A stretch of 32,000 nt of DNA. Origin: Halomicrobium mukohataei DSM 12286. Its GTDB lineage: Archaea; Halobacteriota; Halobacteria; Halobacteriales; Haloarculaceae. The translations under genes and the position numbers were made by a program. The notes beneath the pieces were generated by a model. It was given only the letters and a program-made list of their open reading frames with translations, ran no database searches and was not told where the DNA came from. Positions 1,877 to 32,000 of this stretch are shown piece by piece (within the stretch, counting starts at the first letter, position 1; each line of letters begins with the position of its first letter). The stretch is from assembly GCF_000023965.1 (NCBI RefSeq), contig NC_013202.1, forward strand, positions 2,340,001 to 2,372,000. The letters run 5' to 3'.

Positions 1877-1879
1877 GGG

Positions 1880-3148: not shown

Positions 3149-3153
3149 ACTAG

Positions 3154-3178: not shown

Positions 3179-3189
3179 CCCGCCGGTTT

Positions 3190-4490: not shown

Positions 4491-4491
4491 C

Positions 4492-5616: not shown

Positions 5617-5680
5617 CGGTGTCTCCCCGCCTCTACGAGTCCGTCGACGGCGCTCTCGTCGTCGTCTCTCAGCATGTGCT

Positions 5681-7967: not shown

Positions 7968-8759
7968 ATGTCGATCGTTCGTTCGGTTGTCACGCTCGCT
8001 CGCGACCGGAACGTTACGTTCCTCGCGGCGGGCATCGCCTACTACGCGTTCGTGTCTATCGTTCCCCTGCTGCTCCTGGCGATCGCCGTCGCCTCGACGC
8101 TCGGCGGCCAGGCGTTCGCAGACCGGGTCGTCGCAGTGCTGGGCCGGATGCTCTCGGCGTCGGGCCAGGACCTCGTGACGGGTGCACTCACCGACACCGC
8201 CGGGCGGGGGACGGCCTCGCTGGTCGGCTTCCTGGTGTTGCTCTGGAGCGGACTGAAGCTCTTTCGTGGACTCGATCAGGCGTTCGACGAAGTGTACGCC
8301 GCCGAGGTCCACACGTCGCTCCTCCAGCAGGTGCGGAACGGACTGGTCGTCGTCGTCGGCATCGCACTCGCGGTCGGGACCGCGGTCCTCGTCGGTATCG
8401 CGCTCTCGATCCAGCCCTGGGAAATCCCGCTCGTCAACGTCTTCGGGACCGTCGCGCTCGTCGTCGTCATCACCCTCGCCTTCCTGCCGATCTACTACGT
8501 CCTGCCGCCGGTCGACGTGTCGCTGCGAGAGATTCTCCCCGGCGCGGTGATCGCTGCTGGCGGGTGGGTCCTGCTCCAGCTCGGATTTCGCATCTACGCG
8601 GCCAGTGCCGGGCAGTACGCTGCCTACGGTATCCTCGGGGCCGTCCTGCTGTTCGTCACGTGGCTGTACTTCGCGAGCATCGTCGTCCTGATCGGCGTCG
8701 TCGTCAACGTCGTCTTGCGGGAAGCCGGGATCGGTTCCTCGTCGGAGCCGGCCGGGTAG
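7968..8759 (+). CDS. YihY/BrkB-family membrane protein
   Basis: 263 aa. The N-terminus RDRNVTFLAAGIAYYAFVSIVPLLLL is the hallmark of the YihY/virulence-factor-BrkB family. About six hydrophobic spans. Confidence 0.8.
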   Translation: MSIVRSVVTLARDRNVTFLAAGIAYYAFVSIVPLLLLAIAVASTLGGQAFADRVVAVLGRMLSASGQDLVTGALTDTAGRGTASLVGFLVLLWSGLKLFRGLDQAFDEVYAAEVHTSLLQQVRNGLVVVVGIALAVGTAVLVGIALSIQPWEIPLVNVFGTVALVVVITLAFLPIYYVLPPVDVSLREILPGAVIAAGGWVLLQLGFRIYAASAGQYAAYGILGAVLLFVTWLYFASIVVLIGVVVNVVLREAGIGSSSEPAG

Positions 8760-8826
8760 CTGGCGTCTCCCTCGTTGCGTCTGCGATCCTCGCAGGAACC
8801 TGTGGCCCGGTGTCGGGGCGTCGTTC

Positions 8827-8906
8827 ATACTATCGGCTGTGAATCTGTGAACGATTTCGCCACCCCGGGGTGGCGAAGATCTTCACGAAGTTACAGCCGG
8901 CAGTAT
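8827..8906. repeat. 80-bp modular palindromic element, copy 1 (14-bp arm, 15, 22-bp perfect palindrome, 15, 14-bp arm)
   Basis: Left arm atactatcggctgt (8827..8840). Perfect 22-bp palindrome ttcgccaccccggggtggcgaa (8856..8877). Right arm acagccggcagtat (8893..8906). It lies between convergent genes, and its last base is the T of the TGA stop of the minus-strand gene. Confidence 0.85.
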
Positions 8907-10732: not shown

Positions 10733-10837
10733 ACTCTGGGCTGGCTCCACCATCCTCAAAAGCACCCCCTCCAGTTCTCGGCGGATGAAAACAGAGCGAC
10801 ACGCACAACAGGGAATCGGTCGATCACGCAGACAGCG

Positions 10838-11269
10838 ATGCGTCAACTCACCGACGAAGCGATCGCCGAGGTCCTCGCGGCGAACGGTATCGGCGTCCTC
10901 GCCTTTGGCGAGACCGGTCGCTATCCCTACGCCATCCCCGTCGCCTTCGGGTACGACGCGGACGCCGACGTCTTGGCTCTCCAGCTCGAAGGCGGGACGG
11001 ACAGTGAGAAACACCGGGCGCTGGAGCGACACCCGTACGTGTCGATCACCGTCTTCGAAGAGACCGAGCCGCGAGACACCTGGCGCAGCGCAGTGGTCAG
11101 AGGGAAACTGGTCGAAACGAGCTACGAGGCAGTCGAGACGGCCTTCGCGACACTGGCAAAGCGGACGCGCTCTGCACCGAACCCCGTCGTCTGGGGAGAT
11201 TCGGCGAGCGTGACGCCCTACGAACTACAGATCGAGGAGTGGAGCGGTCGGTCGTTTCCGATCAACTGA
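10838..11269 (+). CDS. pyridoxamine 5'-phosphate oxidase (PPOX)-family FMN-binding protein
   Basis: Uses the internal ATG 10838 of track ORF 10727..11269, giving 143 aa. The pattern MRQLTDEAIAEVLAANGIGVLAFGETGRYPYAIPVAFGY ... WRSAVVRGKL is typical of this split-barrel family. It is a paralog of 19696..20160. Confidence 0.75.
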   Translation: MRQLTDEAIAEVLAANGIGVLAFGETGRYPYAIPVAFGYDADADVLALQLEGGTDSEKHRALERHPYVSITVFEETEPRDTWRSAVVRGKLVETSYEAVETAFATLAKRTRSAPNPVVWGDSASVTPYELQIEEWSGRSFPIN

Positions 11270-17742: not shown

Positions 17743-19521
17743 CTACCGATCCGCGGGCTTTCCGCCGTTCTCCGTCGGGGATCGGTCCTCTGTCTCTGCT
17801 TCGGGACGGCCACCGTCCGCGACCGCGGGAGAGCGTGCGTTGCCGGACTGTTGGGCCGTCGTCTCCGTCTCGAACGAGCGCAACATTCCGAGCAGTTCGT
17901 CGGCGCGGTCCGCGACGGTCCCGATGTCCTCCGAGACGGTCTCGACGGTCTCGGTCTGTTGCTGAGTGGCCGCCGAGGCCTGCTCGGCCTCGTCGCGGGT
18001 CTGTTCGCTCACCGCGGTCAGATCGTCGACCACCTTGGCGACCTCTTCGGTCGTCTTCGCCTGCTCGCCGGTCGCGTCGGAGATCTCCTGCATCGAGTCG
18101 TCGACTTCGCCGACGACGGTGACGAGCTCCTCGAAGTCTCGGAGCGCCGCCGCGATCGTCGTCGTCGAGCTCGCTACCTGTTCGTCCATCGCTCTGACCT
18201 CGGTGACCGTCTCGTCGGCTTCCTCGCTCACCGACTCGACCAGCGTAGCGATCTCGTCGGCCGACGCGCGCGTTTCCTCGGCCAGGGCCTTCACCTCGTC
18301 GGCGACCACTGCGAACCCGTCGCCGGTTCCGTCGGCCCGTGCGGCCTCGATCGAGGCGTTCAGTGCCAGCATGTTCGTCTGCTCGGCGATCTCGGTGATC
18401 ACGTCGACGATCTCCTCGACCGCGGCGATCTGCTCTCCGAGGTCCGCGACCGCGGTCGCGATGTGGTCGATCTTCGACTCCAGTTCGTCGAGTTCGTCCA
18501 GCGCCTCGATCGCGTCTTCTCGACCGTTCTCTCCGCGCTCTGCGGCGTCTCTGGCAGTCTGTGCGGCCTCGTCTGCCGTCGCTGCGATCTCTTCGACGGT
18601 CGCCGAGAGCTTGCTCATCTCCCGTGCCACGTCCTCGTGGCGCTCGGTCTGTCTGGTCGCGCCGGTCGAGATCTCGTCGACGGACGCCGCGATCTCCTCG
18701 CTCGCCCTGTCGACCTCGTTCATGTTCTCGTCGACGCGATCACTCGCCGTCGCGACCGACGCGGCGAAGTCGGTCACGTCACCGACCGTCTGGTCGAGGT
18801 TCGAGATCAGATCGTTGTAGTTGGTGACGACCTCGTCGAACACCGCCTCGTCGCCGTCGATCTCGTCGGCGTCGATTCGCGCCGTCAGATCTCCGGCCTC
18901 CGCTCGCTCGGCCGCCGCTCCGAACGTCTCGACGAGCCGCTGGAGATTCTCCGACCGTCGTTCGAGCCGGTCGGTCATCTGCTGGAGCTCGTCGGTGTAC
19001 TGCTCCAGATTGTCCGCCATGTGATCGAGCGACTCGCCCATCTCTCCGGGCACTTCTTCGTCCAGTGCAGCCGCGTCGAACTCCTGGCGAGCGAGGGCGT
19101 CCGCCTGCCGGGAGACGGTGTCGAAGTAGCCGTGAACGCGCGAGAACGAGGACACGAGCGTCCCGATCTCGTCGGGCTGGTCGCTGTCCGGTACGTCGAT
19201 GTCGACGGTCCCGCTGGCGATCGCGTCCGCGCGGTCTGCCAGCGTCGTGATGGGGCCGACGATGTCCTCTCTCGTGATGAAGATCGTGTTCACGAAGACG
19301 AGCACGGCACCGAGCAACAGAGCGATCGTCAGCGCGAACTGCGTGATCCCCGAGAGAAACAGCGAGACGACGACGAGCGTCAGCGAGACACCGAACTGAA
19401 TCGCGACGGCAGCGATGATCTTTCGTTCCAGGGACTTGTCGACACCGACGAGTGTCAGCGACCTGCGTATCTGGCGCTTGTACCAACCGACGAGCGTCGA
19501 GAGCATAGGTGTGCGAGACAT
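17743..19521 (-). CDS. methyl-accepting chemotaxis protein / halobacterial transducer (Htr)
   Basis: 592 aa with two adjacent TM helices, a HAMP region, long coiled-coil heptads, and the highly conserved signalling tip [34 protein letters not shown]. Confidence 0.92.
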
Positions 19522-20317: not shown

Positions 20318-20356
20318 CCCGTATCAACGCCAACTCGCACATGTGAGGGAGAGATT

Positions 20357-20881
20357 ATGGCAACCAACACGGCGAACCCACTGGCGACGGACTTCGAGCT
20401 CGAGTTAGACGGGCCGCTGACGAGCTACTGGCTGGCCCTGCTGCGGGTCATCACGGGCTGGTGGTTCTTCCACGCGGGCGTGACCAAGCTCGTCGAGGAC
20501 GGGCTGGCCTACAGCTACGGGCCGATGTACATGCAGGAGATGACGGGCACGGCCCTGGGGCCGATCCCGGTCTGGATGGGCAACAACCTGGCGTGGTTGA
20601 TCGCGCCCGGCGTCCCGCTGTTCGAGACGCTGATCGGGCTGGCGCTGATGGCCGGCCTGCTGACGCGGCTGGCGTCCATCGGCGGGGTCATCTTCATGAC
20701 CCTGTTCTGGATCGGCAACGCCGAGTTCGGCCACGGCCTGGTCAACAGCGACCTGATGGGGCTGCTGTTGTTCCTGACCGTGATCGTGCTGGGCGCGGGC
20801 CGGTACTACGGCCTCGACGCCATCGTCGAGCAGACGAAGCTGGTGAAACGCCACCCGAAACTGCGCTATATCCTCGGCTAA
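20357..20881 (+). CDS. DoxX-family membrane protein
   Basis: 174 aa from the internal ATG 20357. WLALLRVITGWWFFHAGVTKL is the DoxX signature region. Four hydrophobic spans. Confidence 0.7.
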   Translation: MATNTANPLATDFELELDGPLTSYWLALLRVITGWWFFHAGVTKLVEDGLAYSYGPMYMQEMTGTALGPIPVWMGNNLAWLIAPGVPLFETLIGLALMAGLLTRLASIGGVIFMTLFWIGNAEFGHGLVNSDLMGLLLFLTVIVLGAGRYYGLDAIVEQTKLVKRHPKLRYILG

Positions 20882-20895
20882 CGAGGTGACCGACA

Positions 20896-21189
20896 ATGAC
20901 TGACACCACAACGATCGTCGACCGCATCGCGCTGGGACTGAGCGGTGCCCTGTTCGTGCTGGGTATCGTCGTCATGGGCGTGCTGGAACTGCTGGCGGGC
21001 AAACCCTACAGCCCGACCGCGCTGACCAACGACGCCGGTGAAGTGATCGCGACGCCGCTGATCGACCCGACGCTGCGAACCGGGATCGTCATCGCCGCGC
21101 TGCTCGTGCTGGCCGTCTGGGGTGCCTACAAGCTCGTCACGCCGATGGCCACCGACGCCGCCGACCGCGCCGAGATGCCCGCCGACTGA
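20896..21189 (+). CDS. small two-span membrane protein
   Basis: 97 aa. A strong Shine-Dalgarno GAGGTGA (20883..20889) lies 6 nt before the ATG, which is 14 nt after the DoxX stop. Two clear hydrophobic helices. Confidence 0.6.
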   Translation: MTDTTTIVDRIALGLSGALFVLGIVVMGVLELLAGKPYSPTALTNDAGEVIATPLIDPTLRTGIVIAALLVLAVWGAYKLVTPMATDAADRAEMPAD

Positions 21190-21268
21190 TACGGCCGGCT
21201 GTCGCCGTTTCGAGATATTCGCGACCGCGGGGTCGCGAAATGCTGTACAGACGGACAGCCGGCAGTAT
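21189..21268. repeat. 80-bp modular palindromic element, copy 2
   Basis: Left arm atacggccggctgt (21189..21202). Hairpin ttcgcgacc-gcgg-ggtcgcgaa (21218..21239). Right arm acagccggcagtat (21255..21268). It has the same 14-15-22-15-14 spacing as copy 1 and starts on the last base of the TGA stop of 20896..21189. Confidence 0.85.
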
Positions 21269-21418
21269 GGGTCTCCGCTTCGTTTCGCTGCCGTCGAACT
21301 GATTCCTCGCGACTGACAGCGCCGCTCTGACTGTGACCGCCGGCAGTGTCGCCGGACGGTAGACTCCACGGCGATGGTCTCGCTGGCCGCCTGAGAAGGG
21401 GAACGAACAGAGCGGTGG

Positions 21419-22669
21419 CTACTCCCCAGAGGGCCTGATCGTCGCCAGTACCCAGTCGTCGGGGGTCGCTCGGCGCACTTCGAAGGGGTCGAACGCCGCC
21501 CGTGGAGCGTCGGCCAGGCGGCCGAGGAAGTTCCCCACCGGCGTCGGGTCCCGGTCACTGACGAGGACGAACGGCTCGCCGCCGTCGAGCGCGGTGAATC
21601 GCTCGCGGACTCGGGCTTTCCGTTCTTCCGGCGCGAGGCCGCGGATGTCGACGGCGGCGTCCGGTACGTCGACCTCGCCGGCGGTCGCGATCGCGGCGTC
21701 GACTTCGCTGGCGAGATCGGCCACGGGCGCTGGCACGTCGCCGGGCGTCGGCGTCCCTTGCAGGTCGTGAGTGAAGGGGAGTTCGGCGAGGACCGCCGCG
21801 TCGAGGTCCCCGACCGCTTCCTCTGGGAAGAGGTCGTTTGGCTCGCCACAGCAGTCACAGACGTACTCGGCCATGTTGACGACGGTCCCGAGGACTGGCA
21901 CGTCGTTGTCCCGGAACAGTTCGACGGTGCGACTCGTGTCGCTGACGCTGGCGTGGAACGGCGTGGTGACGACGACGACGCCGTCGACGGGAACTTCCTG
22001 GAGCGTCGTCAGCACTACGTCGCCGGTCCCCGGCGGGAGGTCGATCACGAGCACGTCGTCGTTGCGCCACGCGGTGTTCGTAAAGAGGTCGTCCAGCGCG
22101 TCGTGGGCCATCGCGCCTCGCCAGGCCAGCGGCGCGCCCGACTCCATCAGGCCGACGCTCATCACGTCCAGCCCGCCGACCGACACGGGGAGAGGATCGC
22201 CCTCCTCGCTGGACTGGACCGGTCCGCTCACGTCGAGCAGTTCCGGCACGTTCGGGCCGTGGATGTCGGCGTCGAACAGCGCCACGTCGTCGTCGGCCGC
22301 CAGCGCACAGGCGAGGTAGGTCGCCGTCGTCGACTTGCCGACGCCGCCCTTCGCGCTGGCGACGGCGATCACGTGGTCGAACTCCCGGACGCTCGCCCGG
22401 TCGTCACTGGAGGGTGTCGTCCGCTCGACGTGGACGCCTTCGACGCCGGCCACGTCGTCGACAGCGCGTAACATGGCCTGGACGACCTGATTCGCCGTGT
22501 CGCCGTCCAGTGCGGTCATGTCCGTTTCGATGGTCACGTCGGCGTCCTCGACGACGACGTTCTCGACGAAGCCGGCCTCGAACACGGAGAGGTCGGCCTG
22601 TGGGTCGCGAACCGCACGCAACGCCGCTTCGACGCGATCGGTCACGGTGTCTGTGTTCGTATCTGTCAT
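21419..22669 (-). CDS. three-domain fusion: DUF59/MIP18-like domain, Mrp/NBP35/ApbC-type P-loop Fe-S carrier ATPase, DUF2249-like domain
   Basis: 416 aa. The N-terminal roughly 90 aa resemble DUF59 (RVEAALRAVRDPQADLSVFEAGFV). Deviant Walker A ASAKGGVGKST, and VIDLPPGTGD. Cysteine motif CDCC. The C-terminus VDIRGLAPEERK...FVLVSDRDPTPV follows the DUF2249 pattern. Confidence 0.88.
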   Translation of the reverse strand: MTDTNTDTVTDRVEAALRAVRDPQADLSVFEAGFVENVVVEDADVTIETDMTALDGDTANQVVQAMLRAVDDVAGVEGVHVERTTPSSDDRASVREFDHVIAVASAKGGVGKSTTATYLACALAADDDVALFDADIHGPNVPELLDVSGPVQSSEEGDPLPVSVGGLDVMSVGLMESGAPLAWRGAMAHDALDDLFTNTAWRNDDVLVIDLPPGTGDVVLTTLQEVPVDGVVVVTTPFHASVSDTSRTVELFRDNDVPVLGTVVNMAEYVCDCCGEPNDLFPEEAVGDLDAAVLAELPFTHDLQGTPTPGDVPAPVADLASEVDAAIATAGEVDVPDAAVDIRGLAPEERKARVRERFTALDGGEPFVLVSDRDPTPVGNFLGRLADAPRAAFDPFEVRRATPDDWVLATIRPSGE

Positions 22670-22670
22670 C

Positions 22671-23537
22671 TTAGAGATCCGGCATCCTGTTGAGGCGGTC
22701 CTCGCCGGGCAACAGGCGACTGTCGTTTTCCAGCGCGCCGCCGAACTGGCGGCGGAAGCGACGCGGCTCGACTTCCAGGGCGCGCTCGGCCGTCTGGCGG
22801 ACCACCGTCGCGGGATCGTCCGTCAGCTCCCGCAGGCGATCGCGGGCCCGGTCCTCGTCGACGCCCCCGAGCATGTGTGCGGCCCACTCGCGGACGCGCT
22901 CGCTGTCGTCGCGGCTCTGTTCGAGCAACAGGTCGGCCATCGCCTCGCCACGGAGCTTGAACAGCGAGATGGCCGCGTTCCGGCGGACGGCGTGGTGGTC
23001 GTCGTCGAGTGCCGTTTCGAGGTCGGACTCGTGGGCCTCGCGGTCGAGATTGTCGAGCGCCACGACGGCCTCCGATCGGACCCACGGGTCGGGATCGTCG
23101 AGCAGTTCGACCGCGACCGCTGCGGCCGCTTCGCCGGTCTCCGTCCCGGAACCGGCGTCGGTCCCGTGGGCGGTCAGTGCCTCGACGGCGAACTGGCGCA
23201 CGTCGTCGTCCGGGTCGTTGGTCGCGGCGTAGGCCAGTCCCGCGACGATCGTCTCCGTCGTCGCCCGGTCTTTCAGCGCGAGCGCGGCCCGACGACGGTC
23301 GATCTCGCTGTCGGCCGCCAGATCGGCCAGTAGTTCACTGGGATCGTCGCCCTCCACCGGCTCGGTGTCGGCGGCCGCCAGCTCCGCGGGCGTCGCCTCG
23401 CCGATGGTAACGTCGGCACGGCTCACTTCGATGTCTTCGAGCGCGTCGATGTCGGCGTGGAGGCCGGGGCTCCGTTCGGGATCGAGCTGGGGGTCCGGCT
23501 CCTCTTCGAGGTGCTTCTCGAACTCGTCGTCGGTCAT
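22671..23537 (-). CDS. HEAT/PBS-lyase-like repeat protein with acidic N-terminal region
   Basis: 288 aa from the internal ATG (cat 23535-23537) of track ORF 22671..24557. Repeated D(D/P)xxxVR(xx)A(vxaL) units: DDVRQFAVEAL, DPWVRSEAVVAL, HHAVRRNAAISL, SERVREWAAHML, ATVVRQTAERAL. Confidence 0.8.
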   Translation of the reverse strand: MTDDEFEKHLEEEPDPQLDPERSPGLHADIDALEDIEVSRADVTIGEATPAELAAADTEPVEGDDPSELLADLAADSEIDRRRAALALKDRATTETIVAGLAYAATNDPDDDVRQFAVEALTAHGTDAGSGTETGEAAAAVAVELLDDPDPWVRSEAVVALDNLDREAHESDLETALDDDHHAVRRNAAISLFKLRGEAMADLLLEQSRDDSERVREWAAHMLGGVDEDRARDRLRELTDDPATVVRQTAERALEVEPRRFRRQFGGALENDSRLLPGEDRLNRMPDL

Positions 23538-24361
23538 CGCTCCACCTCCAGCGAGAGCAGCGTGGCGATCCCGAGGGCGAACGGGACGGCCCGCGGGAGC
23601 GTCGCCGGCACGCCAGCGAAGGCGAGCAACGCGACGCCGGCAAGCAGGGCGAAGCGTTGCTCTCGGAGCGCCACGCTCGCCGCCGTCACCACGCCAGCGA
23701 CGGCCAGCCCGACGACGACCAGCGACGTGCCCACGACGCCGCTGCCGACGAGGGTGGTCGCGCCCGCGACGAACGGATTCGCGAGGCCGACGGCCACTAC
23801 GACGGCGAACGCGCCCGCGCCGACCCCGACCGCCCGCGGGCCAGCGCCAGCGAACAGTGGCGTCGCCGCGATGCCGAGCAGCGCGAGCGTCGAACCGATC
23901 GGTCTGAGTTCGGGCCAGCCGAAGCTGGCCGCGAGCGCGACTGCGACGGCCGCGACGAGCAACGCGGTCGCCGCGCCCGTCCAGACGGTGAGTCGGCGGC
24001 GGAAGCCGACCGCGACGACGCCGGTCCCCGTGGCGACGGCGACGGCCGCGGGCGTGGCGAGGCCGACGGCGGCCGCGAGCAGCCCGAACACGCCGACGAA
24101 GAGGAGACCGACGCCCGCGAGGGGGTCGTCCTCGCTCGCCCCGAGCCACAGTGCGACCAGTGCGGCCAGTCCCGTGGTCACGCCCGCGATCGGCTCCCGT
24201 GGGAGCGTCGCCGGTGCCGCCGGTGCGTTGACGAGGATCGCCGCAGCGAACCGCGCGCCGACTGCGAGCGCGACGACGGTGGTCGCGACGATTGCGACCG
24301 TCCGTCGCCCGAACGAGGCCGGACGCGCGACGGCGGGCCGCTCGATCTCGCTCGCGGTCAT
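23534..24361 (-). CDS. Ala/Gly/Val-rich polytopic membrane protein, unknown function
   Basis: 275 aa with about 7-8 hydrophobic spans. It fits exactly between narJ and the HEAT gene, with ATGA overlaps at both ends (24358-24361 and 23534-23537). Competing frames here give only Arg/Pro-rich shadows. Confidence 0.65.
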   Translation of the reverse strand: MTASEIERPAVARPASFGRRTVAIVATTVVALAVGARFAAAILVNAPAAPATLPREPIAGVTTGLAALVALWLGASEDDPLAGVGLLFVGVFGLLAAAVGLATPAAVAVATGTGVVAVGFRRRLTVWTGAATALLVAAVAVALAASFGWPELRPIGSTLALLGIAATPLFAGAGPRAVGVGAGAFAVVVAVGLANPFVAGATTLVGSGVVGTSLVVVGLAVAGVVTAASVALREQRFALLAGVALLAFAGVPATLPRAVPFALGIATLLSLEVER

Positions 24362-25032
24362 GCTCCCTCCAGCCGTGCCGCCAGGTCGTTTCGGTCCGCG
24401 CGGACGACTCGCTCCATGAACTGTCCGAGGCGGCCGTACACGCCGGTGCCGGGTTCGTCGGCGAGGCGATCGGCGACGCCGGCCGCGAGATGCCCGAGGT
24501 GGCGGTCGTGAAAGTCCAGCCGGGCGGCCGCTGCGCTCTCGTCGACGGCGGCCTCACGGCGGGCGAGAAACGCCGCGAACTCCAGTTCGTAGGCCAGCGC
24601 GTCGTGGTTGTCTCGATCGTCCTGATCGATCGCGAGCCCGTAGTAGTCGTAGGCCCGTGCCAGATCGAGGTTCACGTCGTTCCAGGACCGATCCGGCCGG
24701 TACTTCGACTCGTACAGCGGCACCGGCGGTCCCCGTGCGTCGAGCGAGCCGTCGGTCCGGTCCGTGTACTCGCTGTACCCCAGCTCGAAGATGTCGTTGT
24801 ATCGGGCCGCCAGGGTCTCGTAGCCGTCGTCGGTCGTGCAGTCGGGAGCCGCCACGTCCAGCGTCGTCTGTGCGACACACGCCTCGATGTCGGCGTCGAG
24901 TGTCCCCTCCGTGGCGGCCTCGTGGAACGCCTCGTCGGGATGCCGGAAGGCGTGTGCCAGGGTCCGGTACAGCGTCGCTCGGGCCGCCGCGTCCACGTCG
25001 AGATCGTCGGGCGCGTCGGTGACGGTCGCCAT
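24358..25032 (-). CDS. narJ: nitrate reductase assembly chaperone (NarJ/TorD family)
   Basis: 224 aa from the internal ATG (cat 25030-25032), 1-nt overlap with the upstream stop. TorD-like pattern (LYRTLAHAF..P, YNDIFELG, PLYESKY, DHDALAYELEFAAFL). Positioned downstream of narGH. Confidence 0.8.
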   Translation of the reverse strand: MATVTDAPDDLDVDAAARATLYRTLAHAFRHPDEAFHEAATEGTLDADIEACVAQTTLDVAAPDCTTDDGYETLAARYNDIFELGYSEYTDRTDGSLDARGPPVPLYESKYRPDRSWNDVNLDLARAYDYYGLAIDQDDRDNHDALAYELEFAAFLARREAAVDESAAAARLDFHDRHLGHLAAGVADRLADEPGTGVYGRLGQFMERVVRADRNDLAARLEGA

Positions 25033-25874
25033 CAGTTCGGCCCTCCTCCCGCTCGGTAGACGCCGAACGCGGTGACGGCAGTCACCGCGACGATCGCGAG
25101 TCCGGCCAGCGTCCACAGCAGCGTCTGGTAAGGCGGTCCGCCCGGCCCACCGCTCATCGGGAAGTAGTACCACTCGCTGACAGCCTTCTGTCCGGCGCGC
25201 TCGCCGTTGGAGCCGTTCCAGACCGCGAAGGCAACGTCGAGGTCGCCGTCGTCGCTGATCGCGGTCCGGTTCTCGCTGGTCGCGTCGAGGGGGCGCGAGT
25301 AGACGACGGTCCAGGTGGCGTTCTCGCCGGTCCCCTCGTGGGTGGCCGTCGCGTCGATCGCCGGCTCGTCGAACGGCGTCGTCGAGCCGGCACCGCCCGC
25401 CAGTAGCTCCTGGGTACCGGTGTCGCCGGACCAGTACCAGACGTTGACCCTGTTGTCCTGTCCGCCCATCGCGATTGGCGGGCGGGCGCTGCGGTTGGCC
25501 GGGAACTGCACGGCGACGGCGTCGGCGAACGCCCGCACGTCGCTGGCGCTCTCGTCTCTGGTCTGGTCGTGCCACTCCAGACGGACGAAGAGCCGGTCGT
25601 CGGTCGTCGCCGCCTGTACGTTCACCTCCTCTATCGTGGTGTCGTCGGCGTTTGGCACGCTCGACGGCGCGCTGGTCAGGGGCACGTCACTGGCGGGCAC
25701 CGCCTCCCAGCCGTCGGCGTCGGGTCCGTCGAGTGGACCGTCGGGACGCTCGACCACGGGGATCTCGTGGGCCGGCCGCGCGCTCGCCAGCGGCGTCGCG
25801 ACGGTCGAAACGACCACCAGCGTCGCCACGAGGACCGCCGCGACGAGGGCACGTCGATGCCGGCGGTCAGTCAT
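25032..25874 (-). CDS. heme-b gamma-like subunit (ethylbenzene-dehydrogenase gamma / DMSO-reductase type II heme-b family) with signal peptide and C-terminal membrane anchor
   Basis: 280 aa from ATG 25874 (MTDRRHRRALVAAVLVATLVVV...). Motifs FVRLEWHD, AVQFP, PPIAMGG, NVWYWS and NGERAGQKAVSEWYYF fit the EB_dh heme-b domain, including candidate Met and Lys ligands. C-terminal helix LLWTLAGLAIVAVTAVTAFGVY. An in-frame upstream ATG exists at 25952. Confidence 0.78.
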   Translation of the reverse strand: MTDRRHRRALVAAVLVATLVVVSTVATPLASARPAHEIPVVERPDGPLDGPDADGWEAVPASDVPLTSAPSSVPNADDTTIEEVNVQAATTDDRLFVRLEWHDQTRDESASDVRAFADAVAVQFPANRSARPPIAMGGQDNRVNVWYWSGDTGTQELLAGGAGSTTPFDEPAIDATATHEGTGENATWTVVYSRPLDATSENRTAISDDGDLDVAFAVWNGSNGERAGQKAVSEWYYFPMSGGPGGPPYQTLLWTLAGLAIVAVTAVTAFGVYRAGGGPN

Positions 25875-25963
25875 CCTCGAACACCGGGCGACTTCGCGGT
25901 GTTCGTCTCCCGAGCTCGAAGATGACTGCCGTCGCTGTGCTTTGTCAGTCATCTTCGAACACC
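25866..25963. repeat. triple repeat at the narH/orf7 junction: 20-bp direct repeat (25866..25885 and 25944..25963, 19/20) plus an inverted 13-mer (25916..25928)
   Basis: gtcagtcatcCtcgaacacc versus gtcagtcatcTtcgaacacc. tcgaagatgactg at 25916..25928 is the exact reverse complement of 25946..25958, and pairs with 25868..25880 with a single G-U in the mRNA. Confidence 0.85.
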
Positions 25964-27021
25964 TCCAACCGGTACTGTTCGGCCGGATTCTTGTCCTGGA
26001 GGATCTCCATGAGTTCGCTGTCGGCTCCCTGTCTCGCCCGCTGGCGCTCCCGTTCGATCGTGTCCAGTGCCTCGTCGACGCGGTCGCCGAACAGCTCTCG
26101 AAGGTACTGGCGGGGGATACGGTCCACGTCGACCGACTCGCCCTCGTCGGTGTGCTGGGGCGGTGCGAACGGCGGGATGTAGTAGACGTTGGGCTGGGTC
26201 TGGAACTCCGGATGCAGCGGGAGCGCGACCTCGTACTCCTCGACGAGCTTGTAGATGGGTCCGTCTTCGTCGTCGAGAAAGCCCACCAGCCGGAGCTGAG
26301 GGGGACACTCCTCGGCACAGGCGGGCGCGAACGTCTCGCCGTCCGGCCCCTCGCCCTCGATGCGGGGGTAACAGAAGATGCACTTCTCCGATTTCTTCGA
26401 GACGGTGTTGTAGTACACCTTCTTGTAGGGGCACCCCTCGACGCAGTAGCGGTAGCCCCGACAGCGGTCCTGGTCGACGAGGACGATGCCGTCCTCCTCG
26501 CGCTTGTACAGCGCCGATCGCGGGCAGGCCTCGACACAGGAGGGGTGGGTACAGTGGTTGCAGATCCGCGGGAGGTAGAAGTAGTAGCTGTTGGGGTACT
26601 CGCCGGCACCCTCGTCCTCGTCCCAGTTGGGACCCCACTCCGCGCCGTCGCGGGGGCGCAGCGGCTCGTCGCTGCCCTCGTACATGATCTCTTCGTGGTT
26701 GAACTCCCAGGCCCGGCCGTAGTCCTCGCGATCGGGGATCTCGCCGGTCTGGCGGTCCGTGTGTTCCCCGGACTGCCAGCCGCCACCCGACTCCTCCCAG
26801 CCTCGCGGGTAGCCTTCGCCGGGCTTGGTCTCGACGTTGTTCCAGTACATGTACTCGCTGCCGCCGTCCTCCGTCCAGAGGCTCTTGCAGGCGATCGTAC
26901 ACGTCTGGCAGCCGATACACTTGTTGAGGTCCATCACCATCGCCACCTGGTGGTCGACGCCGTCGGCGACGTTGATCAGGGTGTCCTCGTCCTCGCCGTC
27001 GTTCTGGGTGTTCGAGCTCAT
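25945..27021 (-). CDS. narH: respiratory nitrate reductase beta subunit (4-cluster Fe-S protein)
   Basis: 358 aa. Cys groups CIGCQTCTIAC, CNHCTHPSCVEAC, CRGYRYCVEGC and CIFCYPR. ATGA overlap with narG. Confidence 0.93.
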   Translation of the reverse strand: MSSNTQNDGEDEDTLINVADGVDHQVAMVMDLNKCIGCQTCTIACKSLWTEDGGSEYMYWNNVETKPGEGYPRGWEESGGGWQSGEHTDRQTGEIPDREDYGRAWEFNHEEIMYEGSDEPLRPRDGAEWGPNWDEDEGAGEYPNSYYFYLPRICNHCTHPSCVEACPRSALYKREEDGIVLVDQDRCRGYRYCVEGCPYKKVYYNTVSKKSEKCIFCYPRIEGEGPDGETFAPACAEECPPQLRLVGFLDDEDGPIYKLVEEYEVALPLHPEFQTQPNVYYIPPFAPPQHTDEGESVDVDRIPRQYLRELFGDRVDEALDTIERERQRARQGADSELMEILQDKNPAEQYRLEVFEDD

Positions 27022-29936
27022 TGGTCGTCACCTCCTGCGGGGCGCACACCGACAGACTCGCGCTGCTCGTCTCCCGAGCCCGACTGCCCGTCGGTCAGTC
27101 GGACGTCCACGTTCACGTCGCTGTTGACGCCGGTCGGACCCCAGTAGTTCGGGAAGAAGTAGAGGTGTTCGCCGGTGTCCTCGGGGTACTGGACCAGCTG
27201 CGTGGGCTTCATGTACATCGGGACGAGCGTGTTGAAGTTGTCTCGGCCCGGATACTGGAACTTCTCCCACGAGAAGAAGTGCCGGACCGTTCCGGGGTCA
27301 CCCGACGGGTAGATCTTCGCCTGTACCTCGACGCTGCCCATGTCGTTGTACACCTCGACGGTGTCGCCGTCCTCGATCCCGCGCTCCTCGGCGTCCTCGG
27401 GATTGAGGAAGACCGTCGGTTCGCCCCGCTGGAGCCGGAGCATCTTCGTGTTCTCGCGCCACGTCGAGTGGATCGACCAGCGGCTGTGGGGCGTGTTGTA
27501 GGAGAGGGGGTAGTCGCCGCCGGTGTCCTGTGGCCCCTCCTTGTGCGTGGGCAACTCCTCGCCGAGTTCGAGGAACCAGTCGTGGTCGACGTAGTACTGC
27601 TGGCGGCCGGTGAAGGTGGGCCAGGGCTGTTTGTCCTGGACGTAGTCCTGCCAGGGGACGTACGGTGCTCCGTCCTCGATGTCGGAGGTCCAGTGATCCC
27701 CCGCCGCTTCGAGACGCTGGGGCTGCTCGACGGTGTCGGCGAACGTGATCTGCTCGTCGCTGTCTGCGGGGTTGGACTCCTCGCTGTGTTCGAGGACGAA
27801 CTCGGAGGCCTCGCGGCCGTCTTCGAGGGCTCCCTCCTCGCCGGTCTCCCAGTCGCGCACGTAGTCGTCGTAGATCGTCGTCAGGTCGATCTCGCGGTCG
27901 AACGATCGGTCCTCGACCGGTTCGACCCCCCGTTCCTGGGCCCGCTCCTGGATCTTCTCGGCCAGCAGGCGGAAGATCTCCCAGTCAGACTTGGCCTCGC
28001 CCAGCGGCTCGACGGCGGGCGTGAACGGGTGGACGTACGTGTGCATGTCGGTCATGTTCAGGTCGTGCTTCTCGTAGTGGCTCGCCGCCGGGAGGACGAT
28101 GTCGGAGTACATCGCCGTCGAGTCCATCCGGAAGTTGATGTCCACGACCAGATCCAGTTTCGGCCAGAGCTGTTCCTCGACGGCGACGTTGCCCTTGGCC
28201 TGGTTGAAGTAGTTGCCACGCCAGACGAACATCGTCGAGGGGTCCGGCCAGGACCCGTCCTCGCGCTCCTCGGGGTACACCGGCATCCAGCCCTCGTCGA
28301 TGGACTCGCGGATCTTCTCGGCGGTGTCGGGATCGGTGTTGTCGAGGATGCCGGCGTGGAAGTAGGTCCACAGCGTCGTCGGCACGCCCCGCACGCTGCC
28401 GGTCGGGAACGAGAGCGTCTTCCAGCCGTGGAACGTCCAGATCTTCTCCTGGCCGACGTAGTGATCCAGCCCGGTGCCGGGTTCGCCGAGGTTCCCGGTC
28501 AGGGTCACGAGCAACTGGATCGCCCGGTTCCCCAGGTCGTTGTGGTACCAGTCGTTGACGCCCTTGCCGTGGATGATCTTGGCCGCGTCGGCGTCGGCGA
28601 ACTCTCGGGCGACGCGCTGGTAGGTGTTCTCGCCGACCCCGGTCTCCTCGTGGACGAACGCGGGCGTGTACTGTGACAGTTCCTCACGGAGGTTCTCCCA
28701 GACCGACCGGACCGCCACCTCGCCGTCGTCGGTCTCGACGCTCCGCTCGACGCCCAGCTGGGGGTCGAAGTCGAGTTCGATGCTCGACTCGGGGTCGTGC
28801 TGGCCGTCGCGCTCGCCGAGCGAACCGGGCGCGGGCCGGAGCTCCCCGTCCTCGTCGACCATCACGAACACCTTGTCCGGGTCGTCGGCGTCCGCCGCGA
28901 GACCGACCTCGCCCGCCCGGAGGAACTTCCCGGTGTCTTCTCGCACGAGCAGCGGCATGTCGGTCTGCTCTTTGAGGTGGGACTCGTCGTACAGCTCCTC
29001 GTCGACGATCGTCTGGGCCATCCCGAGCGCGAGCGCGGTGTCGGTGCCACCCTCCGGCGCGAGCCACTCGTCGGTGTGGATCGCGGTCTGGGAGTAGTCG
29101 GTGAAGATCCCGACGCGTTTCGCTCCCTCGTAGCCGGCGTCGAGGAAGTACTTGGCGTCGGGGATACGGGTGACGTTGATGTTCGACCCCCAGGCGATGA
29201 TGTAGTCGGCGTTGTGCCAGTCGGCGGACTCGGCGTTGTCCGTCTGGGTCCCCCAGGTGATCGGCTGACCCGGCGGCAGGTCGGAGTACCAGTCGTAGAA
29301 GCTGTGGGACACGCCGCCCAGCAGGTTCACGAGCCGGGAGCCGCTGGCGAACGACACGGGCGACATGGCCGGGATCGGCGTAAAGCCCGAGATTGCGTCG
29401 TACCGGCCCGCCTGCACCTCGTCGATGACGTGGTCGGCGATCTCCGTCAGTGCCTCGTCCCAGGAGATGCGCTCCCACTGGCCCTCGCCGCGTTCGCCGG
29501 TGCGGCGCAGCGGGTGGAGCACGCGCTGGTCGGCGTTGACGTAGTCCGTGTAGCAGGCCCCTTTCTGGCAGCCCCGCGGGTTGGGATCTGGGAGGTCCTC
29601 GTCGATCACGGGGTAGTCGCCGGCCTGTTCCTCGCGCCAGACCTGCCCGTCCTTGACGTAGACGTTCCACGAACAGGAGCCGGTGCAGTTGACGCTGTGG
29701 GTCGACCGCGCCACGGAGTCCCAGTCCCACTCCTCGCGGTAGAGGTCCTCCCACTCGCGGTAGGGGTACGATCCGATCGGATCGTCGACCGCCTGCAGCC
29801 CGTCCATCTCTTCGTCGGCGAACGACAGGCCGGTCGCGCCGACGATCGAGGCGGCCCCGAGGCCGCGGACGAAGTCGCGTCGGGTAATTCCGGAACTGTC
29901 CATCCACCGGTCGTCGTCGATGTCGTGTTCACTCAT
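27018..29936 (-). CDS. narG: respiratory nitrate reductase catalytic subunit (molybdopterin, DMSO-reductase type II), Tat-exported
   Basis: 972 aa. Twin-arginine signal SGITRRDFVRGLGAASIVGATGLSFA. FS0 motif HSVNCTGSCSW (H-x3-C-x3-C). Full-length molybdopterin oxidoreductase similarity by eye. Confidence 0.93.
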   Translation of the reverse strand: MSEHDIDDDRWMDSSGITRRDFVRGLGAASIVGATGLSFADEEMDGLQAVDDPIGSYPYREWEDLYREEWDWDSVARSTHSVNCTGSCSWNVYVKDGQVWREEQAGDYPVIDEDLPDPNPRGCQKGACYTDYVNADQRVLHPLRRTGERGEGQWERISWDEALTEIADHVIDEVQAGRYDAISGFTPIPAMSPVSFASGSRLVNLLGGVSHSFYDWYSDLPPGQPITWGTQTDNAESADWHNADYIIAWGSNINVTRIPDAKYFLDAGYEGAKRVGIFTDYSQTAIHTDEWLAPEGGTDTALALGMAQTIVDEELYDESHLKEQTDMPLLVREDTGKFLRAGEVGLAADADDPDKVFVMVDEDGELRPAPGSLGERDGQHDPESSIELDFDPQLGVERSVETDDGEVAVRSVWENLREELSQYTPAFVHEETGVGENTYQRVAREFADADAAKIIHGKGVNDWYHNDLGNRAIQLLVTLTGNLGEPGTGLDHYVGQEKIWTFHGWKTLSFPTGSVRGVPTTLWTYFHAGILDNTDPDTAEKIRESIDEGWMPVYPEEREDGSWPDPSTMFVWRGNYFNQAKGNVAVEEQLWPKLDLVVDINFRMDSTAMYSDIVLPAASHYEKHDLNMTDMHTYVHPFTPAVEPLGEAKSDWEIFRLLAEKIQERAQERGVEPVEDRSFDREIDLTTIYDDYVRDWETGEEGALEDGREASEFVLEHSEESNPADSDEQITFADTVEQPQRLEAAGDHWTSDIEDGAPYVPWQDYVQDKQPWPTFTGRQQYYVDHDWFLELGEELPTHKEGPQDTGGDYPLSYNTPHSRWSIHSTWRENTKMLRLQRGEPTVFLNPEDAEERGIEDGDTVEVYNDMGSVEVQAKIYPSGDPGTVRHFFSWEKFQYPGRDNFNTLVPMYMKPTQLVQYPEDTGEHLYFFPNYWGPTGVNSDVNVDVRLTDGQSGSGDEQRESVGVRPAGGDDQ

Positions 29937-30111
29937 GAGTCAGAAACACCGTAAGCATCGCACAGAGAGCGCCGACGACGGCGAGCGCGAACCCGGTCGG
30001 CGTCGAGCCACCGGCTTCGAGGCCCAGCGCGACGAGGCCGAGCCCGAGCAGTTTGCTCGCCGTGTCCAGCAGTCGATACTGTCGCTCCGAGAGAGTGGCG
30101 GCGTCAGTCAT
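29929..30111 (-). CDS. small two-span membrane protein of the nar operon
   Basis: 60 aa from the internal ATG (cat 30109-30111). It has 8-nt overlaps with narC (ATGACTGA) and narG (ATGAGTGA). Two hydrophobic helices. Confidence 0.6.
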
Positions 30112-31501
30112 CGTCGCCACCCCCGTCGGACGACCTCGCTGGTCCGCCGTCGGCCGCAACGTCTTCACCGTCCGTCTCCGGGGGCGTCGCGGGATCGTCC
30201 TCGCGCAACAGCAGGTACGTGGCGATCCCGAACAGCGTCGGCACGATCAGCAGCGCGGCCGCGAGGATCGGATTGACGACGCTGGTCGAGACGTCGAGCA
30301 CCTGGTTCGCGAGGATGTTGTTCATCCCCGCGATGGAGGCGATCATGACGAACGCCACCGCCGCGACGCCGACGGCGGTCTGCCAGGGCCGGTCCAGCGG
30401 ATCGGCGGTGAAGTGAACTTCCGGCGTCCGGTCGATAAAGGGCCAGGCCAGGATCGCCGCGAACACGAGGCCGGGCAGCACGATGCCACCGAGGAACTCG
30501 CTGTTGATGTGGATCGGGCCGAGGTCGATGGCGATGCCCGGAAGCAGCTTCAAGAAGCCGTAGACCCACATCAGGAACCAGTCCGGCATGATGAGCTCCG
30601 GCGTCGCTGCGGGGTCGTTGGGGCCGTACTCGGCGACGTTGTGGACCGGGAGCAGGCCGGCCAGCAGCGACAGCGTCGCGGCCGTCAGGAAGAACACGAC
30701 CGCCGACACCGCGGCCTGGTTGGGGACCGCCGGGAGCCCGACGATCACGTCGTCGTTCTCCCGGTCGATCGCCTCGCGGCCGGTCTCGACGTCGTCTTCG
30801 CGGGGTGCCTCGGTGTGTTTCTGGCGAACCAGGATGAACATGTGCAGGGCCAGCCCCCCCATGATCAGCAGGGGGATCACGAGCACGTGCAGGAAGTACA
30901 GCCGCGGGATCGTCGCGCTCGTGGGGAACTCGCCCCCGAAGACGATCTCGGCGAGGAAGTCACCGACCAGCGGCACCGAGACCGTGAGATTGTACCCGAT
31001 CCCCGTCGCCGTCGCGGCGAACTCGTCGAACGGCAGCGCGTAGCCGGTGTAGGCCGCCCCCATCGCCAGCACGGCCAGCCCGGTGCCGACGACCCAGTTC
31101 GGTTCCCGGGGGTTCCGGTAGGCCCCGGTGAAGAACACCCGGAGCATGTGGAGCCCGATCGAGGCCACGAACAGGTGGGCCGCCCAGTGGTGGAGCCGCC
31201 GGATGAACATCCCGAACGGGACGGTGTAGGTGATGTGCAGCACCGAGACGAACGCTTCTGGCATCTCCTCGCCCTGGAACTGGGCGACGCTGCCGTCGTA
31301 CTGGACGGCGCTGGTCGACGGCTCGTAGAAGAAGCCGAGGAACACGCCGGTCAGGATCAAGAGGAGGAAACAGAAGACCGCGACCTCCCCCAGCAGGAAC
31401 GAGTCCTCGGCCGGGAACGCCTTCCCGAGGAACGTCTGGCCGTTCTCCAGGTCGAGTCGGCTGTCGAACCAGTCGTAGACCTGCTTCGCTCGGGACATCA
31501 T
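30104..31501 (-). CDS. narC: cytochrome b (bc1/b6-type) subunit of the nitrate reductase complex
   Basis: 465 aa, polytopic. [28 protein letters not shown] and the later His-containing helices match the cytochrome b N- and C-terminal domains. ATGA overlap with the Rieske gene. Confidence 0.9.
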
Positions 31502-32000
31502 TCACCTCCGGGACCGACGGTCCCTTCGAAGTCTCCGGTCGCGACGAGTTCCCCCTCGCTGGTCATCGTGATCGGGAGCTGTGGCAGCGCTCGTCCCGGC
31601 GGCCCGTCGGTCACCGCGGCACCCGACAGCGGATCGAACTTCCCGAAGTGACACGGGCAGACGAGCGCGTTCCCCTCTCGGTTCGAGACCATACAGCCCG
31701 CGTGCGTACAGACTTTCGAGTAGGCGGCGTAGCCGTCGACGGTGAAGGCCATGTTCGTGTCGCCGCCGTAGTCGTCCTCCGAGAAGCGCACCAGCAGCGT
31801 CGGAGCGTCCTCGATCCCCGGTCGCGGCTCGGGGAACACCGTCATCTGCTCGCCCGCCGACAGCGCGCTCTCGGTGACGCGGTTGCCGTCCCCGTCGACG
31901 AGGTTGATCCCGTCGGAGTAGATCGGGCCGCTGTACCCGCGCTCGAACACCTGTGTCAGGCCCGCCAGCGGCGCGGCGAGGCTCGCGACGGCAGTCAGCC
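31498..32000 (-). CDS. narB: Rieske [2Fe-2S] protein, 5' end outside the window
   Basis: Rieske boxes CTHAGC and CPCH(F)G. The reading frame stays open upstream of the track start (a GTG at 31950) to the window edge and encodes a hydrophobic [14 protein letters not shown] segment, so the true N-terminus lies beyond 32000. Confidence 0.85.

Follow-up and report, generated by a model that had tools for sequence, protein, structure and literature searches.

Three genes that follow narJ in haloarchaea are linked to the exported nitrate reductase and may help to load its cofactors

Introduction

The loading of iron-sulfur (Fe-S) clusters and molybdenum-bis(molybdopterin guanine dinucleotide) (Mo-bisMGD) into molybdoenzymes exported by the twin-arginine translocation (Tat) pathway is known mostly from Escherichia coli, where general Fe-S machinery works with one TorD-type chaperone. 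Does a haloarchaeal nitrate reductase come with more than that? The question is raised by a 32,000-nucleotide stretch of Halomicrobium mukohataei DSM 12286 (NC_013202.1, positions 2,340,001 to 2,372,000; called the window below, in whose numbering positions are given). Its minus strand holds a pNar-type nitrate reductase cluster, narB through narJ, and narJ is directly followed by three more open reading frames (ORFs). These encode a polytopic membrane protein of the DUF8068 family, a HEAT-repeat protein and a fusion of DUF59, Mrp/NUBPL and DUF2249 domains. The older literature ends the operon at narJ, and reviews up to 2008 give eight ORFs (PMC2483277). A first-pass annotation of the window had read the three additional genes as an undescribed module that loads cofactors into the exported reductase or repairs its clusters. 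Here we ask whether the trio belongs to nar and what it may do.

Results

The three genes are coupled to narJ

The three ORFs and their junctions are as the first-pass annotation had placed them. The narJ stop TGA (24358-24360) shares an ATGA with the ATG of the DUF8068 gene (24359-24361), whose own stop TGA (23534-23536) shares an ATGA with the ATG of the HEAT gene (23535-23537). The HEAT stop TAA (22671-22673) is separated by one base from the ATG of the fusion gene (22667-22669). On its other side, the narJ start shares 1 nt with the stop of the gene for the heme-b gamma subunit. The window has the high GC content of haloarchaeal DNA. GC content at third codon positions is 0.87-0.89 in the three ORFs, equal to that of narG and narH, and they are therefore taken as coding frames.

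NarG bears the twin-arginine motif GITRRDFVRGLG, so the reductase is exported, as had been assumed. NarJ matched TIGR03482 with 2.8e-61 and 206.9 bits (cut-off 152.3) and PF02613 with 4.7e-10. The gene order from narB to narJ was the same in loci L001, L003, L086 and L088-L090.

The trio is linked to narJ across haloarchaea

Linkage was counted by contig look-ups, which began from fusion or DUF8068 orthologues of different genera, and by a metagenome scan. The order narJ-DUF8068-HEAT-fusion was found in 13 of the 14 sampled fusion or DUF8068 loci. Besides Halomicrobium, these come from Haloferax mediterranei, Haloarcula marismortui, Halogeometricum borinquense, Halorussus marinus, Halosimplex halophilum, Halomarina pelagica, Salinirubrum litoreum, Haloarchaeobius amylolyticus, Halogranum gelatinilyticum and Halobonum tyrrellensis (the contig is cut inside the DUF8068 gene), with a Haloferacaceae metagenome-assembled genome (MAG) and an ENA metagenome contig in addition. 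In 12 other loci, the genes at the trio junctions overlapped by 1-14 nt (mostly 4) or were 1-25 nt apart. A scan of a genome collection with the fusion alignment was keyed on the generic stretches [IV]AVASAKGG and DLPPGTGD; ordinary bacterial Mrp made up 79 of its 80 loci, and only the Haloferacaceae MAG (L004) was useful.

The metagenome scan used a NarJ alignment and yielded 65 loci, all with haloarchaeal-type NarJ. Their six-frame ORFs were searched with hidden Markov models (HMMs) built from our own alignments, and a locus was evaluable for a gene when it reached far enough downstream. DUF8068 followed narJ in 54/54 evaluable loci and the HEAT gene in 51/51. The fusion was present in 42/44, or in 31/33 after narJ sequences at least 95% identical were collapsed; in the two exceptions, L125 and L150, the operon stops after the HEAT gene. 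Linkage is thus near-universal: it spans more than 11 genera and 51 clusters of narJ sequences, and the overlaps at the junctions are conserved. DUF8068 and the HEAT protein therefore count as obligate companions of narJ, and the fusion as a nearly obligate one. The arrangement is not due to chance, which bears out the earlier claim of linkage. As a control, the Haloarcula marismortui dms operon beside nar has its own TorD-type chaperone and none of the trio.

Between Halomicrobium and Haloferax or Halorussus, identity was 59-63% for the HEAT protein and the fusion and 54-58% for NarJ. By this measure, the HEAT protein and the fusion are at least as well conserved as NarJ.

The sole exception among the 14 sampled loci is Haloplanus salinarum, whose fusion gene adjoins succinyl-CoA ligase genes, with no nar gene in the 21 kb examined. 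In a tblastn comparison, the 150 nt before this fusion gene encoded the C-terminal 50 residues of the HEAT protein (84% identical) and ended in an ATGA overlap with the fusion start. The surviving piece is exactly the conserved C-terminal tail of the HEAT protein. Since a HEAT remnant with an ATGA stands at the fusion, the locus is a deletion scar of the nar arrangement and not an independent context.

The remnant (L085:9852-10003, CP184342.1) has acquired an ATG and forms a 50-codon ORF (MTDDPATVV...LPGEDRLNRMPDR), with the succinyl-CoA ligase genes upstream. It could be translated into a mini-protein that keeps the HEAT C-terminal peptide.

Another altered locus was seen in Halogeometricum borinquense (RZHH01000003.1, L084:2806-5489). 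No narG is called there; tblastn found NarG from residue 91 on, and the Tat-signal region is missing. PaaB and radical-SAM/SPASM genes upstream replace narB and narC, and narH through the fusion is intact. This nar cluster may be decaying or rearranged.

The trio is predicted to be transcribed with nar and is co-induced with it in Haloferax

Promoters and terminators were looked for by scanning AT-richness and T runs, as a scanner for bacterial sigma-70 promoters and intrinsic terminators is inapplicable to archaea. In 20319-32000 there was no 8-mer with at least 7 of 8 positions A or T and no T or A run of at least 5, and nothing TATA-like was found from narB to the end of the fusion gene. 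A denitrification promoter motif from the literature, CGAAYATDKTYG, had two 1-mismatch matches in the window, neither of them near the trio; 46 of 100 shuffles did as well, so the matches are not above chance. The 229-nt gap after the fusion and the convergent plus-strand genes beyond it indicate that in this genome the fusion closes the nar transcription unit. From the overlapping and 1-nt junctions and the lack of any AT-rich element, the trio is predicted to lie in one transcription unit with narGHJ.

Expression data exist for Haloferax mediterranei. An RNA-seq study of 2024 (PMC11218638) lists the orthologues E6P09_17425, E6P09_17420 and E6P09_17415 in its nar gene-cluster table. Under denitrifying conditions, the log2 fold changes in its Table S2 are 5.34 for narG, 4.88 for narH, 5.18 for the gamma subunit gene and 4.74 for narJ, then 4.53 for DUF8068, 4.23 for HEAT, 3.60 for the fusion and 2.46 for the next gene. 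The trio is co-induced with nar 12- to 23-fold. The graded induction fits one polar transcript.

The fusion has the motifs of an Fe-S carrier ATPase

All three domains of the fusion scored above their Pfam cut-offs (Table 1), as did the repeats of the HEAT protein, and the first-pass assignments hold. The KGGVGKST and CDCC motifs named there are present. Across 20 orthologues (down to 58% identity), the stretches SAKGGVGKST, which holds the Walker A motif, DADIHGPN, WRGAMAHDA and DLPPGTGD are invariant. C271 and C274 are invariant as well, within CDCC in the window and CPSC or CECC in others. From what is known of ApbC and Nbp35, we take this CxxC to be the Cys pair on which Mrp/NBP35 dimers hold a bridging [4Fe-4S] cluster.

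The fusion shares 96% identity with a protein of Halomicrobium sp. LC1Hm. The NCBIfam models nearest to the fusion were ApbC (NF008669; 174.8, cut-off 348) and MrpORP (NF041136; 184.7, cut-off 450). Both scores are under the equivalog cut-off, which makes the fusion a distinct subfamily. The nearest solved structures in the PDB were the Fe-S cluster carriers 8zkc, 3kb1/6oby, 2ph1 and CFD1 6g2g. Judged by its sequence, the fusion is a carrier-type ATPase with every functional motif intact.

The DUF2249 tail keeps D341, R343, R350, SDRDP and W406 invariant in the 20 orthologues. A sequence search of the tail against the PDB gave no match. In the AlphaFold model, the tail folds as beta-alpha-beta-alpha-beta-beta with a predicted local distance difference test score (pLDDT) of ~90. 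Foldseek matched it to SirA-like 3hz7 (TMt 0.66), TusA 3lvj_C/3lvk_B (0.61-0.67) and YeeD/TsuB 8j4c/8k1r; the match probabilities were 0.98-1.0 but the E-values were weak (~1e-2), which gives moderate support for a TusA-like fold. The tail has no Cys and no invariant His, and in the alignment it lacks the His of DrpA-type proteins. It looks like an interaction module and not a sulfur or metal carrier. Among the DUF2249 proteins discussed in PMC11218638, only E6P09_00795 keeps the DrpA-type His.

The HEAT protein has conserved segments outside its repeats

The HEAT protein matched HEAT_2 (PF13646) in three stretches with 5.4e-23 and 81.5 bits (cut-off 27.7). It is strongly acidic, with 26% Asp+Glu. 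Against the equivalogs for CpcE, CpcF and NblB it scored 15.7-23.6 bits, where the cut-offs are 200-330, and only the generic repeat is common to them. Mean column identity in the orthologue alignment (n=10) was 66%, with both termini conserved. The conserved N-terminal segment, PDPQLDPERSPG..EDIEV.R.DVTIGEA..EL..DTEPV, lies outside the repeats, and the conserved C-terminal tail reads FRRQF...LPGEDxLNRxPDL. These two segments are likely docking peptides.

In the Haloferacaceae MAG, the HEAT protein carries a lineage-specific Cys/His-rich insertion near its N-terminus, DDGHDCGDECGCGGHDG (L004:9087-9200). The Haloarcula protein has a shorter GCH (L003:9147-9170). The Cys/His-rich insertion may be a metal-binding add-on.

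DUF8068 is an orphan membrane protein family

The membrane protein is composed to 65% of Ala, Gly, Val and Leu and has zero Cys and zero His. Local Pfam and NCBIfam scans gave no match to it. Its family membership rests on the precomputed annotations of its relatives: PF26265 (DUF8068) is the label on 105/105 of them, including the 91%-identical orthologue P0131, and on the membrane-protein orthologue at every context locus examined. A profile search found 141 relatives among 1.84 billion representative proteins, with a sharp cut-off and no remote families. A word-indexed search gave 105 clusters, and each cluster with a source organism name is haloarchaeal.

The AlphaFold model is all-helical (pLDDT 91.4, predicted TM-score 0.89). 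It has 11-12 helices, several of them in tight hairpins, in place of the 7-8 simple hydrophobic spans counted earlier. Foldseek against the PDB gave no meaningful match to this model (best E 0.9, TM <0.3). NarI (1y5l, 1q16) matched at E 6-8 and TM ~0.2, which we took as chance, since DUF8068 has no His for heme.

Many DUF8068 proteins (P0127, P0128, P0131, P0136-P0138 and others) bear the name "phosphate ABC transporter permease" in the NCBI and UniRef records. A permease of this kind (BPD_transp_1/PstC-PstA) was rejected: there was no Pfam or NCBIfam match, no transporter structure match and no adjoining partner gene for an ATP-binding cassette (ABC) transporter. The name looks like a propagated annotation error. 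We also rejected a role of DUF8068 and the "PBS-lyase-like" HEAT protein in heme handling for the extracellular heme-b subunit, as a His, Cys, Met or Trp-rich motif is lacking in DUF8068 and the HEAT protein scores far under the cut-offs of the lyase equivalogs. DUF8068 looks like a scaffold or anchor and not a redox subunit or transporter.

Cofactor genes extend the operon in other genera

In Haloferax, Halomarina, Salinirubrum, Halogranum and Halobonum, the fusion gene is followed, with an overlap or a 3-12-nt spacer, by a gene for a small Oxidored_molyb protein (161-194 amino acids). An HMM of this protein found no copy in the 65 metagenome loci, so this fourth gene is lineage-restricted. 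A MobA-like NTP transferase gene stands at the operon tail in Haloarchaeobius, Halogranum, L087 and six of 40 metagenome loci, where it overlaps or closely trails the fusion gene or the small Oxidored_molyb gene. The MobA-like genes extend the nar operon into Mo-bisMGD synthesis in some lineages. In Halosimplex, MoeA, MobB-MoaE and MobA genes lie near the trio. Downstream of the fusion in the window, no relic of a small Oxidored_molyb or MobA gene was found. The appended cofactor genes support the view that the distal half of the operon serves maturation.

The small Oxidored_molyb protein is hardly more than a sulfite-oxidase-type domain that binds the molybdenum cofactor (Moco), and it is too short for a full enzyme. 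It could be a Moco carrier.

Discussion

Comparison with known systems

The direct orthologues of the trio in Haloferax mediterranei stand in the same order after narJ (L001), with identities of 41% for DUF8068, 59% for HEAT and 61% for the fusion. Haloferax mediterranei differs by its fourth gene, for the small Oxidored_molyb protein, which is absent from the window. The fusion is placed in the nar operon and discussed in PMC11218638, but only for its DUF2249 domain and as a possible sensor; the HEAT protein and DUF8068 are rows of a table, and the trio is given no function, conservation analysis or mutants. The word "undescribed" in the first-pass annotation therefore holds for the older papers and does not hold for the recent one, in which the orthologues are listed.

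The deviant Walker A core and the CxxC are common to the fusion and to ApbC/Mrp, Ind1/NUBPL, HCF101 and MrpORP. An N-terminal DUF59 is also found in bacterial Mrp and in HCF101. At its C-terminus, the fusion has DUF2249, with a probable TusA-like fold, where HCF101 has DUF971. Unlike the known Mrp carriers, the fusion is encoded in a gene coupled to those of a TorD-type chaperone, a HEAT protein and an orphan membrane protein, and its presumed client is Tat-exported.

Escherichia coli NarGHI is similar in having a TorD-family chaperone encoded in its operon, and NarJ of the window also belongs to that family. The E. coli NarJ coordinates cofactor insertion into NarG before final assembly. To our knowledge, the E. 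coli narGHJI operon encodes neither an Fe-S carrier of its own nor a HEAT protein or an additional membrane protein. The E. coli enzyme faces the cytoplasm and is not exported, and haloarchaeal NarJ is of the type II (EbdD/SerD-like) branch, TIGR03482.

In Thermus thermophilus, the DUF2249 proteins DrpA and DrpB are encoded directly downstream of nar and are induced by anoxia and nitrate; the drpAB double mutant makes NarG but has little nitrate-reductase activity (PMC6282519). DrpA is a stand-alone DUF2249 protein and DrpB combines DUF1858 with two DUF2249 domains. They have no ATPase and are under their own promoter, and the fusion tail lacks the His residues conserved in DrpA-type proteins.

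A further likeness is to eukaryotic cytosolic Fe-S assembly (CIA), in which the NBP35-CFD1 scaffold, CIA2/MIP18 (DUF59) and MMS19 (HEAT) hand Fe-S clusters to clients. The same types of Mrp/NBP35 ATPase, DUF59 and HEAT protein are found here, and CFD1 is among the nearest solved relatives of the ATPase core. This is an analogy only. The HEAT protein of the window matches generic HEAT_2 and not the MMS19 families. The trio is also without a CIA1 WD40 partner, its DUF59 domain shares a chain with the ATPase, like that of bacterial Mrp, and CIA has no counterpart to the nar membrane partner or the DUF2249 tail.

Proposed function

That the trio is an accessory set dedicated to nar is very probable. 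With moderate confidence, we further propose that it forms a nar-dedicated, membrane-tethered module for cofactor (Fe-S) loading, which acts with NarJ before Tat export. Fe-S loading is suggested by the domain content; the delivery of clusters, the clients, a physical complex and the role of each partner are likewise what we infer from the sequences. A dimer of the Mrp-type ATPase would bind a transient [4Fe-4S] cluster on its invariant CxxC pair and would deliver clusters to apo-NarG (FS0) and apo-NarH. NarJ would meanwhile hold the Tat signal of NarG and delay export. The HEAT solenoid, with its conserved terminal peptides, would be an adaptor that links carrier, chaperone and client, and the carrier would dock its partners through DUF59 and the probably TusA-like DUF2249 domain. 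DUF8068, devoid of redox or metal ligands, would tether the assembly near the export site on the cytoplasmic membrane face. There is precedent for parts of this scheme: E. coli NarJ is needed for the insertion of both FS0 and Mo-bisMGD, and client-dedicated carriers of the Mrp family are known in Ind1/NUBPL for complex I and HCF101 for photosystem I. The Thermus drpAB double mutant, in which NarG is made but nitrate-reductase activity is low, is a further precedent (PMC6282519).

A bolder form of the proposal can be offered only tentatively. NarJ, DUF8068, HEAT and the fusion might form a physical, membrane-anchored platform for assembly before export, an archaeal, enzyme-specific counterpart to CIA targeting, which would couple the insertion of Fe-S and, in some lineages, Mo-bisMGD to Tat release. 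DUF8068 would then have a novel membrane-protein fold that arose solely for this platform. Repair of clusters in the mature enzyme, the other role in the first-pass annotation, is unlikely because mature NarGH sits outside the membrane; the HEAT and Mrp proteins have no export signal.

Several points weigh against the loading proposal. The fusion is less nar-bound than DUF8068 and HEAT, being lost from the operon in L125 and L150 and kept without nar in Haloplanus. Its tail, free of Cys and invariant His, hints at no cofactor chemistry. The fall in fold change toward the 3' end in Haloferax mediterranei also fits a weak internal constitutive promoter. The Fe-S-rich, Tat-exported Dms enzyme in the same genomes manages without such a module, so Fe-S demand alone cannot explain why nar has the trio. 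We found no functional study in the literature on DUF8068, or on HEAT or Mrp proteins with narJ, in haloarchaea. As weak negative evidence, the main text of a membrane proteomics study of Nar fractions from Haloferax mediterranei mentions none of the trio proteins.

Alternative explanations

A merely positional explanation, with the fusion as a general Fe-S carrier that happens to lie beside nar and the other two genes as unrelated passengers, would be helped by the intact fusion next to succinyl-CoA ligase genes in Haloplanus salinarum, where no nar gene was seen in 21 kb. That locus, however, is a visible nar deletion scar, and near-universal linkage with conserved overlaps, strong co-induction with nar and the haloarchaeal source of every DUF8068 match that bears an organism name all speak against passengers. 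The synteny counts largely refute this explanation, and we regard it as most improbable. A structural role is a better contender, if still an unlikely one. DUF8068, perhaps with the cytoplasmic HEAT protein, would stabilise or dock a NarGH-Orf7-NarC-NarB supercomplex or its Tat export, as a non-redox subunit or an assembly factor, and the fusion would be a looser, separable add-on. DUF8068 and HEAT never fail in the metagenome counts, whereas the fusion is dispensable in some operons. DUF8068 is an orphan family found only beside this enzyme type; its few polar residues and its lack of Cys, His or Met ligands suit a scaffold. Yet the main text of the proteomics study does not report DUF8068 or HEAT among the proteins that co-enrich with Nar activity. 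The HEAT protein is acidic, soluble and without an export signal, and NarGH is extracellular, so stable contact would be possible only through the membrane subunits. In Haloplanus, the deletion spared the C-terminal HEAT peptide beside the fusion, which hints that HEAT works with the carrier.

The trio could also regulate and not build. DUF2249, possibly together with an Fe-S cluster on the Mrp core that is labile to oxygen or nitric oxide (NO), would sense nitrate, NO or oxygen, and HEAT and DUF8068 would relay the signal at the membrane to tune denitrification genes or Nar activity. DUF2249 proteins have been proposed as sensors of nitrogen species (PMC11218638), Thermus DrpA and DrpB alter nar/dnr expression and are proposed nitrate sensors (PMC6282519), DUF2249 is reported alongside hemerythrin and heme-copper oxidase/NO reductase genes, and both the window and L125 have a methyl-accepting transducer gene close to the end of the operon. 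We nevertheless consider such a sensor quite unlikely. The fusion tail has no DrpA-type conserved His, Pfam and NCBIfam scans found no DNA-binding or signalling output domain in the trio, and every motif that a working carrier ATPase needs for catalysis and cluster binding is invariant. Induced distal genes that are translationally coupled to a chaperone are the wrong layout for a sensor that must pre-exist its signal, and the genes added after the trio are Moco genes and not regulators. Those added genes bring up Moco handling: HEAT and DUF8068 would mainly hold Mo-bisMGD or channel it to NarJ-bound NarG, and the fusion would supply only FS0, which is needed before Moco insertion. Oxidored_molyb and/or MobA-like genes follow the fusion in six genera (Haloferax, Halomarina, Salinirubrum, Halogranum, Halobonum and Haloarchaeobius) and on several metagenome contigs, MoeA and MobB-MoaE adjoin in Halosimplex, and E. 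coli NarJ is established to couple FS0 and Moco insertion. Against it, HEAT and DUF8068 are unlike any known Moco-binding or biosynthetic family in Pfam and NCBIfam or, for DUF8068, by Foldseek; the window and the Haloarcula/Halomicrobium lineage have no appended Moco genes; and Dms enzymes use the same cofactor without these proteins. A mainly Moco-directed role is improbable.

Significance

New here are the breadth and near-invariance of the linkage, the obligate status of DUF8068 and HEAT and near-obligate status of the fusion, and the Haloplanus scar. Also new are the finding that DUF8068 is an orphan family whose model has no match in the PDB, the probable TusA-like fold of the DUF2249 tail and the extension of the operon by Moco genes. 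The accepted haloarchaeal nar operon grows by three genes, and the propagated permease name is corrected. If the loading proposal is true, the trio would be a genetically tractable archaeal case of client-specific Fe-S delivery, Haloferax being tractable. It would also give DUF8068 its first function and the widespread DUF2249 a concrete biochemical context. The trio is probably needed where active haloarchaeal nitrate or (per)chlorate reductase is to be made heterologously, as for bioremediation. These results will interest specialists in denitrification and metalloenzyme biogenesis and are no categorical surprise.

Other features of the locus

The coordinates of all features are collected in Table 1.

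Table 1. Positions of genes, domains and motifs; entries with an L prefix are in other loci, all others in the window.
Feature	Position	Strand	Remark
narB (Rieske)	31498 to at least 31950	-	probably cut at window end
narC (cytochrome b)	30104-31501	-	
orf4, small, DUF8120-like, 60 codons	29929-30111	-	
narG, with Tat signal	27018-29936	-	
narH	25945-27021	-	
Heme-b gamma subunit/Orf7	25032-25874	-	EB_dh; TIGR03477 7e-73
narJ, type II dimethyl sulfoxide reductase-family (TorD-like) chaperone, 224 amino acids	24358-25032	-	TIGR03482, PF02613
DUF8068 polytopic membrane protein, 275 amino acids	23534-24361	-	PF26265 label of orthologues
HEAT-repeat protein, 288 amino acids	22671-23537	-	HEAT_2
DUF59-Mrp/NUBPL-DUF2249 fusion, 416 amino acids	21419-22669	-	three Pfam domains above cut-off
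Fusion: DUF59/FeS_assembly_P domain, residues 11-81	22427-22639	-	PF01883 1.7e-8, 35.1 bits (cut-off 23.5)
Fusion: Mrp/NBP35/NUBPL P-loop ATPase core, residues 98-304	21758-22378	-	PF10609 3.6e-63, 213.7 bits (cut-off 27.1)
Fusion: deviant Walker A SAKGGVGKST	22328-22357	-	
Fusion: C271-D-C-C274 (CxxC)	21848-21859	-	codons read; Cys pair invariant
Fusion: DUF2249 tail, residues 340-409	21443-21652	-	PF10006 6e-15, 55.3 bits (cut-off 29.5)
Gap after fusion stop, 229 nt	21190-21418		then convergent plus-strand genes
Small membrane ORF	20896-21189	+	convergent to nar cluster
DoxX	20357-20881	+	convergent to nar cluster
Small Oxidored_molyb genes	L001:11318-11902; L089:11962-12471; L090:12074-12559; L157:6394-6903; L158:2641-3138		
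MobA-like NTP transferase (molybdenum cofactor guanylyltransferase family)	L087:9166-9762; L156:6302-7027; L157:6900-7604		

The product of orf4 is hydrophobic, and its gene has 8-nt overlaps with the narC stop and the narG start. In orthologous loci it is annotated as DUF8120; it is a conserved operon micro-protein that is easily overlooked.

A methyl-accepting chemotaxis transducer (HAMP + MCPsignal) is encoded on the minus strand at 17743-19521, ~2 kb past the operon end. In L125, a methyl-accepting transducer gene (7811-9304, minus strand) is convergent and comes right after the HEAT gene. These operon-end transducers might take part in nitrate or redox taxis.

At 8909-11032 on the minus strand, ~10 kb away from nar, lies a gene for an unusual fusion of 708 amino acids, with an N-terminal hemerythrin HHE cation-binding domain (residues 121-233) and an AMP-binding, acyl-CoA synthetase-like domain (residues 301-660). 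Two low-GC islands, 1600-3000 and 6000-7700, are rich in AT segments (GC 0.51-0.60, against ~0.66 elsewhere). They overlap genes for a Peripla_BP_2 binding protein, part of an iron/cobalamin-type ABC transporter (1883-5811), and for a transporter of the SBF family, and they may have been acquired horizontally.

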